DNA of 4,483 nt, taken from the IMG/VR virus record IMGVR_UViG_2706794668_000013; one strand, given 5' to 3'. The stretch comes from a virus (lineage: Duplodnaviria > Heunggongvirae > Uroviricota > Caudoviricetes). Positions 1,923-2,468 of this stretch are shown piece by piece. Within the stretch, counting starts at the first letter, position 1. The number at the start of each line of letters is the position of its first letter. A model generated the notes under the pieces. The model was not told where the DNA came from. It worked only from the letters and a program-made list of their open reading frames with translations, and made no database searches. Position numbers and translations under genes: made by a program.

Positions 1923-2468
1923 TCAGGAAGAACCTTCCGGAGAGACGGACCATTCAATGGCGTTATATGAGGATTTATCAGTGATGGTGCTGAAATCCAT
2001 CGCCTGCAGCGATTTCGCGTAAATACGGTACGCTTTCAGTTTTTCCCGGTCTTCGTCGCTGATTAGCCCCAGCAGCAGGTCTTCTTCCCATTCCCCTGTC
2101 CGGGCACTGACCTGAGCCAGAAGGGCATCACGCTCATCTTCCGCTTTGAGTCTGTAGTCAAAGACAAATTCATCATTGCGGTAAAACCAGTAACCCGGCG
2201 CGGTAATGCGGCGGTTGGCGGTAATATCAGGAACTTCAATAACACTGGCGTTACGGGGTTCAATGCCTGTCACATCCTTACCGACCCACACCACGCGCCC
2301 GTCTCCGGTGTAAACCATTTTTATGGTGTCACTGGCAAAGTTCTTCTGTTCTTCATACCAGTTTTTGCCGTCTTCCGAAAAAAGCCAGGTGACATCATAC
2401 TGTTTTGTCAGCTGATATTATTCCGCGGTTTTCGGATTACCTGCCGTAATATTTTTTAAATGCAACAT
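1923..2468 (-). pseudogene. tfa: Tail fibre assembly protein (Tfa / Mu U-type chaperone) interrupted by a single in-frame TAA at codon 17
   Basis: ATG at 2466-2468, two nt after the fibre stop, encodes [16 protein letters not shown] then TAA (2418-2420). The same frame continues without further stops as [27 protein letters not shown]...EVPDITANRR... to the stop at 1923-1925. The intact family N-terminus, as I recall it, is MMHLKNI..NPKTKEQYQLTK, so the TAA sits where a conserved Gln (CAA) codon is expected. The longest uninterrupted ORF is 1923..2318 (131 aa, from an internal Met). Confidence 0.8.

Follow-up and report, generated by a model that had tools for sequence, protein, structure and literature searches.

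The window analysed in this work, a stretch of 4,483 nucleotides recorded as part of a virus of the Caudoviricetes, carries a gene for a tail fibre assembly chaperone (tfa) whose reading frame is interrupted by a stop codon close to its 5' end. The question raised by this locus is whether the stop is an error of a single record, part of a gene arrangement that still yields a functional product, a sign that a phage has changed the fibre it uses, or a lesion that has turned the gene into a pseudogene.

The genes considered here lie on the minus strand, in the order baseplate J fragment, gp48/YmfQ, fibre 1, tfa, fibre 2 and DUF4376. The first is a C-terminal fragment of baseplate protein J (4088..4483) that covers only positions 172-255 of the profile PF04865, and it is followed by a 196-aa baseplate protein of the Mu gp48/YmfQ family (3498..4088; PF10076, 89.6 bits). 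Fibre 1, the cognate tail fibre of the chaperone (2471..3523; weak gp37_trimer match), has 350 aa if it starts at the ATG at 3523 and 346 aa if it starts at 3511, the start annotated in its relatives; an exact look-up of the 350-aa ORF gave no match, and the public calls begin at the second ATG. Downstream of tfa, fibre 2 (775..1899) is a 374-aa protein of the phage_tail_N family (PF08400, 212 bits), and the last gene (201..824) encodes a DUF4376 protein of 207 aa (PF14301) that is presumed to be the chaperone or partner of fibre 2. In complete chromosomes the genes found further upstream are gp46, gp45, gp44-like, DNA-circularisation, tape-measure, tube and sheath genes, and the module adjoins smpB; because of this gene content the locus is recognized as the tail module of a Mu-like/phiP27-like prophage.

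Translation of positions 2468..1923 on the minus strand gave 181 codons plus a terminal TGA, with codon 17 as the sole internal stop. This codon (2418..2420, -) is TAA, the next base is T (TAAT), and comparison with homologues indicates that the ancestral codon was CAA (Gln). Upstream of it there is a leftover N-terminal ORF of 16 codons (2421..2468, -), whereas the frame of 164 codons on its 3' side is free of stops and the repaired translation ends in PEGSS*. Such an open frame, together with 99% identity to intact genes, is far beyond what is expected by chance. What the sequence-only reading had described, namely a change from CAA to TAA at codon 17 in a frame of roughly 181 codons that is otherwise intact, is correct in its coordinates and ORF lengths, and the closest intact homologues do have CAA. 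The motif quoted there around the conserved Gln, NPKTKEQYQLTK, has to be reassigned, since it belongs to the U protein of phage Mu (5YVQ_B); the motif of this tfa subfamily is NPKTAEQYQ[L/M]TK, with Ala where Lys had been given, and the Gln is present in it as well.

The identity of the gene as a Tfa-type chaperone, also proposed earlier, was confirmed by two comparisons of the repaired protein: residues 40-178 match the Caudo_TAP family (PF02413) with 87.7 bits against a cut-off of 22.1, and residues 1-158 match the Mu U structure 5YVQ_B with E = 8e-39. The gene is located directly downstream of fibre 1 and co-oriented with it, its ATG at 2468 lying 2 nt after the fibre 1 stop (2471-2473), and the same order is found in relatives. 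Membership of the family as a functional chaperone implies an uninterrupted frame for both domains; here the frame is interrupted by the TAA at codon 17, and for this reason the gene (1923..2468, -) is classified as a pseudogene of the Caudo_TAP family, of the Mu U / P2 G type, and not as a functional member.

In the Tfa protein of phage Mu, the fibre is bound by an N-terminal beta-sandwich domain that includes helix alpha-1, and trimerisation occurs via the C-terminal helices (PMC9608196). The S. sonnei gene (for the assignment to this species, see below) shares this two-domain plan of an N-terminal fibre-binding part and C-terminal helices with Mu U; its identity is 50% with Mu U' over residues 1-162 and about 47% with P2-type G proteins. 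With Mu U, P2 gpG and P1 U it has in common the N-terminal motif NPKT-x-EQYQLTK, including Gln17 in the ancestral form, and the position immediately downstream of a fibre gene. It differs from Mu U and P2 G in that it is interrupted by a TAA at codon 17, in that it is not in an invertible G/C segment, and in that it is followed by a second, unrelated cassette formed by a phage_tail_N fibre and the DUF4376 protein. An AlphaFold model of the intact S. boydii orthologue, which was used for rough secondary-structure placement only, has a mean pLDDT of 65; helices 105-155 are the only confident part, and codon 17 falls in a predicted first helix (15-24) within an N-terminal half of low confidence (pLDDT about 37-57).

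Taken as its reverse complement, the window is found letter for letter in a Shigella sonnei draft assembly (GCA_001249025.1, CWTE01000074.1; positions 186-4668 of our locus record L011), and the public names of the proteins of the window also point to S. sonnei. Further copies of the locus were collected by three routes: through the 131-aa truncated product, which led to eight Logan contigs and presupposes the stop; through an exact match to the adjacent YmfQ/gp48 protein, which led to eight complete chromosomes; and through the exact DUF4376 protein, which led to seven S. sonnei-type drafts and one unrelated context. The last two routes are unbiased with respect to codon 17. Among the eight complete chromosomes, one (CP022672) is tied to the species by a paper, being that of S. 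sonnei 866 (PMC6128377). All S. sonnei-type copies read (24/24), including the eight complete chromosomes, carry the TAA, and the gene is identical in them at 546 of 546 nucleotides. In contrast, CAA was found in each of the 19 non-sonnei copies read, which come from E. coli/EIEC (FDAARGOS_944 and CFSAN029787), S. flexneri including 2457T, S. boydii, E. albertii and phage vB_Apl-pPE4. The closest intact genes are those of E. coli FDAARGOS_944 (WP_000902847.1; 99.3% identical) and CFSAN029787 (97.4%), both with CAA. The TAA allele gave no match in an exact-pattern scan of species-representative genomes, a set that probably holds no S. sonnei representative.

These counts bear on the idea that the TAA is a sequencing or assembly error of one draft record and that the gene is really intact. 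The record is indeed a short-read scaffold with N gaps and it has at least one private feature, a deletion in fibre 2 that is described below; nonetheless, 23 further independent assemblies, complete chromosomes among them, show this base as well, and the truncated product had already been recorded for S. sonnei Ss046 (AAZ89357.1 / Q3YYQ5, 'putative tail fiber assembly protein [Shigella sonnei Ss046]'). Since the TAA recurs in all the S. sonnei-type copies, we consider that a sequencing error, which had been offered as an alternative, is excluded, and we leave this explanation almost no weight at all.

A second alternative offered earlier was that a short N-terminal ORF followed by a separate 131-aa ORF is the conserved functional arrangement of the family. 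For this purpose, 119 cluster representatives of tfa homologues (85-98% identity) were examined as proteins, given that a search of representative genomes for related loci gave only seven. Gln17 is present in all 116 homologues that cover the column, and in Mu U too, so that the stop does fall at a conserved Gln, as had been claimed from the sequence; the length is exactly 181 aa in 108 of the 119, the shorter ones being partial or alternative calls. Given both figures, a split gene is not the norm of the family, and this alternative was discarded. Judged from the copies at hand, tfa is thus best described as a nonsense pseudogene in every S. sonnei-type locus read.

With respect to the two closest intact genes, the S. 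sonnei tfa shows three derived changes in 546 nt, all of them C-to-T: the nonsense change Q17*, a synonymous change at Y168, and P174S (window 1947-1949, -), a number too low for a dN/dS estimate. The third of them places a Ser where all 119 homologues have Pro. The orthologues of E. coli/EIEC (WP_000902847.1) and S. boydii prophages are 98-99% identical to the S. sonnei gene and share the order J, gp48, fibre, tfa, fibre 2, DUF4376, often followed by ipaH; they differ in having CAA at codon 17 and Pro174, and in FDAARGOS_944 the baseplate J gene is also uninterrupted. The proposal that the mutation is very recent holds in relative terms, but the stop is common to all the S. sonnei-type copies read and already documented in Ss046, and P174S accompanies it. 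As a separate observation, a few TPA records assign a 181-aa tfa allele to S. sonnei. It is also conceivable that an intact paralogous Tfa encoded elsewhere in S. sonnei genomes might complement the defect in trans.

A shorter product could be made if translation restarted within the open part of the frame. The first in-frame ATG, GTG or TTG after the stop is the ATG at 2318..2316, which opens an ORF of 131 aa (1923..2318, -) and has no Shine-Dalgarno sequence, in agreement with the coordinates and length given by the sequence-only reading. A second restart candidate (2292-2306, -) was overlooked there: a GGAG at 2306..2303 is separated by an 8-nt spacer from a GTG at 2294..2292 (codon 59), from which 123 aa would be translated (1923..2306, -). 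Gene calls of 123 aa that start at this GTG are found in three chromosomes, and in other records a product of 162 aa is called from a CTG at 2411..2409; the differences among the 123-, 131- and 162-aa calls reflect the use of different gene callers and are not evidence of a product. A functional truncated chaperone started at GTG 2294 or ATG 2318 would keep the C-terminal trimerisation module, and it could be argued for on the grounds that the GTG is preceded at 8 nt by an SD-like GGAG, that helices 105-155 are the confidently modelled and conserved part of the protein, that the 131-aa fragment still scores 75.1 bits on Caudo_TAP, and that products of the three lengths have been annotated. However, this fragment keeps only profile positions 23-131 and lacks positions 2-22; the restart products would lack 50 to 58 residues at the N-terminus, within the domain with which Mu Tfa binds its fibre, the short form is the normal state in none of the 119 homologues, the retained part carries P174S at an invariant Pro, and the prophage would be unable to build a baseplate anyway, as discussed below. 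On balance, a working truncated chaperone is very improbable. Still less credence, indeed very little, is given to the more specific idea that a C-terminal fragment of 123 to 131 aa is expressed through the GGAG-GTG restart and acts in trans. If this were true, when Mu-, P1- or P2-type phages that share the module superinfect, the fragment may, for instance, poison or hijack the assembly of their fibres, and the lineage-wide tfa allele would be kept for the benefit of the host and not merely be awaiting deletion.

The fully open frame on the 3' side of the TAA could also suggest that the stop is read through, either by an ochre suppressor tRNA or by programmed readthrough, to give a full-length chaperone. 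In E. coli, translation terminates most efficiently at a TAA with a T behind it, which speaks against this possibility. In addition, no tRNA and no Rfam element were found in the window by tRNA and Rfam scans of this stretch, a stop at codon 17 occurs in no homologue, so that there is no sign of a programmed signal, and the open frame is already explained by a young lesion, given that three derived changes have accumulated in the whole gene. Readthrough that sustains a full-length chaperone is, in our opinion, very unlikely, although rare events of this kind, or a restart product at a low level, are conceivable; a nonsense pseudogene is the reading that we carry forward.

The state of the remaining tail genes is relevant to what the loss of the chaperone could mean. 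In all the complete chromosomes read, baseplate J is split by a 768-bp IS1 inserted at nt 586-595 of 1083, with the target duplication GGGGGCGCAG, and a second IS1, 99.9% identical, lies between the tape-measure and DNA-circularisation genes. In the chromosomal record L018 the two copies occupy positions 8737-9504 and 3548-4314, and their transposase matches the IS1 Pfam families. The end of the first IS1 is located 102 nt beyond window position 4483, and positions 1-83 of L011 match the end of its copy in L018. Because of the IS1 inside J and the second IS1, the prophage is very probably unable to build a baseplate, whatever the state of tfa, and either type of fibre would be unlikely to be mounted on a particle. 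As to the order of events, the nonsense mutation could predate the loss of function of the phage. Fibre 1 itself is 52 aa shorter than its FDAARGOS_944 orthologue (350 vs 402 aa) and has a replaced distal segment around residues 218-262, with flanks that are more than 95% identical; we considered this shorter form as a possible lesion and rejected it, given that a divergent replaced segment is typical of fibre mosaicism and not clearly damage.

Regarding its relationships, the Tfa of phiP27 is 86% identical at DNA level to the S. sonnei tfa over the 3' 59% of the gene. In S. sonnei 866, 17 prophages have been reported; many are IS-bearing remnants, and some resemble phiP27 (PMC6128377). With the phiP27-like remnants of Shigella the locus shares the IS-laden condition, as reported in that strain, and, in relatives, an ipaH gene just downstream; it differs from them in that the record of the window continues into sitDCBA and not into ipaH or smpB.

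The sequence-only reading had also noted that the window contains two fibre cassettes, and proposed that cassette 1 may be off while cassette 2 is intact, in keeping with a switch of receptor specificity; according to this proposal an inducible phage would be left with cassette 2 after the selective inactivation of cassette 1. It is true that there are two fibre/chaperone cassettes and that the stop is in the first chaperone only. The cassettes formed by fibre 1/tfa and fibre 2/partner are, however, in tandem on the same strand, in an order that is constant in the E. coli relatives, and the isolated phage vB_Apl-pPE4 has the same tandem layout, which indicates that the pair is constitutive. 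In the G segment of Mu and the C segment of P1, the cassettes are opposed and flanked by inverted repeats, and a Gin/Cin-type invertase gene is adjacent; here they share one strand, and the prophage stretches read from the relatives and the complete chromosomes contained no annotated or called invertase. From its organization, the pair appears as a dual-fibre layout and not as a switch. Other observations against the proposal are the IS1 in baseplate J and the second IS1 in the tail module, the fact that cassette 2 is not intact in this record, where it lacks 144 nt (48 aa) and has a possibly chimeric 3' end, and the loss of other genes in the sister remnants of S. boydii and S. flexneri, a pattern of neutral decay. 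For these reasons the receptor switch did not hold, and we regard it as highly improbable; the nonsense pseudogene remains the preferred explanation.

The second cassette deserves a separate description. Fibre 2 has 374 aa in the window but 422 aa in all the remaining S. sonnei copies read; the difference is due to an in-frame deletion of 144 nt that removes 48 aa (VAAAAGYARAAEQ...KAQQKSRD), with its junction at about window position 1510. The deletion is flanked by imperfect direct repeats of 21 nt that end in GGAT, and it is present only in this scaffolded record; it could be either a private deletion or an assembly artefact. From about window position 477 downwards, the 3' part of the DUF4376 gene and the spacer correspond to a sit-adjacent allele (window 1-477; L011 4469-11894) that is 100% identical to that of the record L026 (9380-10824), where it is placed behind an IS3-family element and a lambdoid tail remnant, beside sitDCBA. 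In contrast, in the complete chromosomes the Mu-like module runs into a paralogous allele that is roughly 96% identical, and then into smpB; furthermore, three of the Logan contigs stop exactly at the point where the two DUF4376 alleles diverge. Considering that L011 is a scaffold with N gaps, the contig of the window may be a chimeric join or a true recombinant; either the assembly or a rearrangement private to this record may have produced the join, and perhaps the deletion as well. In the same record (L011 5523-6325 and 8732-9178), sitC (130 + 30 aa) and a usp gene (57 aa) look fragmented; this is because of the N runs at 5964-6234 and 8732-9007 and not of mutations, and the sister drafts have full sitC and usp genes of 285 and 144 aa.

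Related remnants in other Shigella species have suffered different damage. In the S. boydii remnant, tfa is intact (98% identical, the closest intact copy there), but fibre 1 is split into 217 + 206 aa, fibre 2 is cut to 234 aa, an IS lies beside a J fragment of 42 aa, and ipaH is found downstream. In three S. flexneri chromosomes (CP058589, CP102215 and CP102206; around positions 9945-9965 of the loci), one A has been lost from the run at codons 5-6 of tfa, which produces a frameshift that may be an independent inactivation or a homopolymer error of long reads; in S. flexneri 2457T the tfa frame is intact. Different lesions in the remnants of S. boydii, S. flexneri and S. sonnei have the look of the neutral erosion of a dead prophage.

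Taken together, a fixed nonsense pseudogene of a tfa gene of the Mu U / P2 G type, in a defective Mu-like (phiP27-like) prophage of S. sonnei, is very likely the correct explanation, and the rivals (an error, a functional restart fragment, readthrough and an adaptive fibre switch) are unlikely even when they are considered jointly. A single C-to-T transition changed the invariant Gln17 codon from CAA to TAA. According to this explanation, translation coupled from fibre 1 would end after 16 residues at the strong TAA-T terminator, and a restart at ATG 2318 or GTG 2294 would yield 131 or 123 aa without the first 50 to 58 residues, from which a working chaperone is not expected. Through polarity, the roughly 490 nt of message left untranslated may in addition depress fibre 2, the next gene downstream. 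With a baseplate that is already broken, the loss of tfa would be neutral and would cost the cell nothing, without a role in fibre switching. The tfa lesion is, in this sense, a case of ordinary decay, one among several, and not a receptor switch.

Pseudogenes of tfa are known in cryptic prophages of E. coli K-12 and Shigella, for instance DLP12 and CPS-53. With these the S. sonnei locus shares the accumulation of point lesions and IS insertions in the late tail genes of a prophage that forms no particles; it differs from them in that what broke the gene, otherwise conserved at 99%, is one nonsense codon of very recent origin, and not a truncation or a fusion. The pseudogene itself is already known, as it is present in the reference annotation, though inconsistently, as a protein of 123, 131 or 162 aa; our literature searches found no paper that discusses this tfa codon.

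From a practical point of view, the 'tail fiber assembly protein' entries of these three lengths should be flagged as pseudogene, and users of the draft scaffold of the window should consider that it may be chimerically joined and that the 144 nt missing from the adjacent fibre 2 may be a deletion private to it. Codon 17 is, on the other hand, a clean marker SNP of S. sonnei, with TAA in all 24 sonnei-type copies and CAA in the S. flexneri, S. boydii, E. coli and E. albertii copies read. The biological weight of the finding is little: it adds a further example of the decay of late genes, driven by point mutations and IS elements, that is typical of Shigella prophages.
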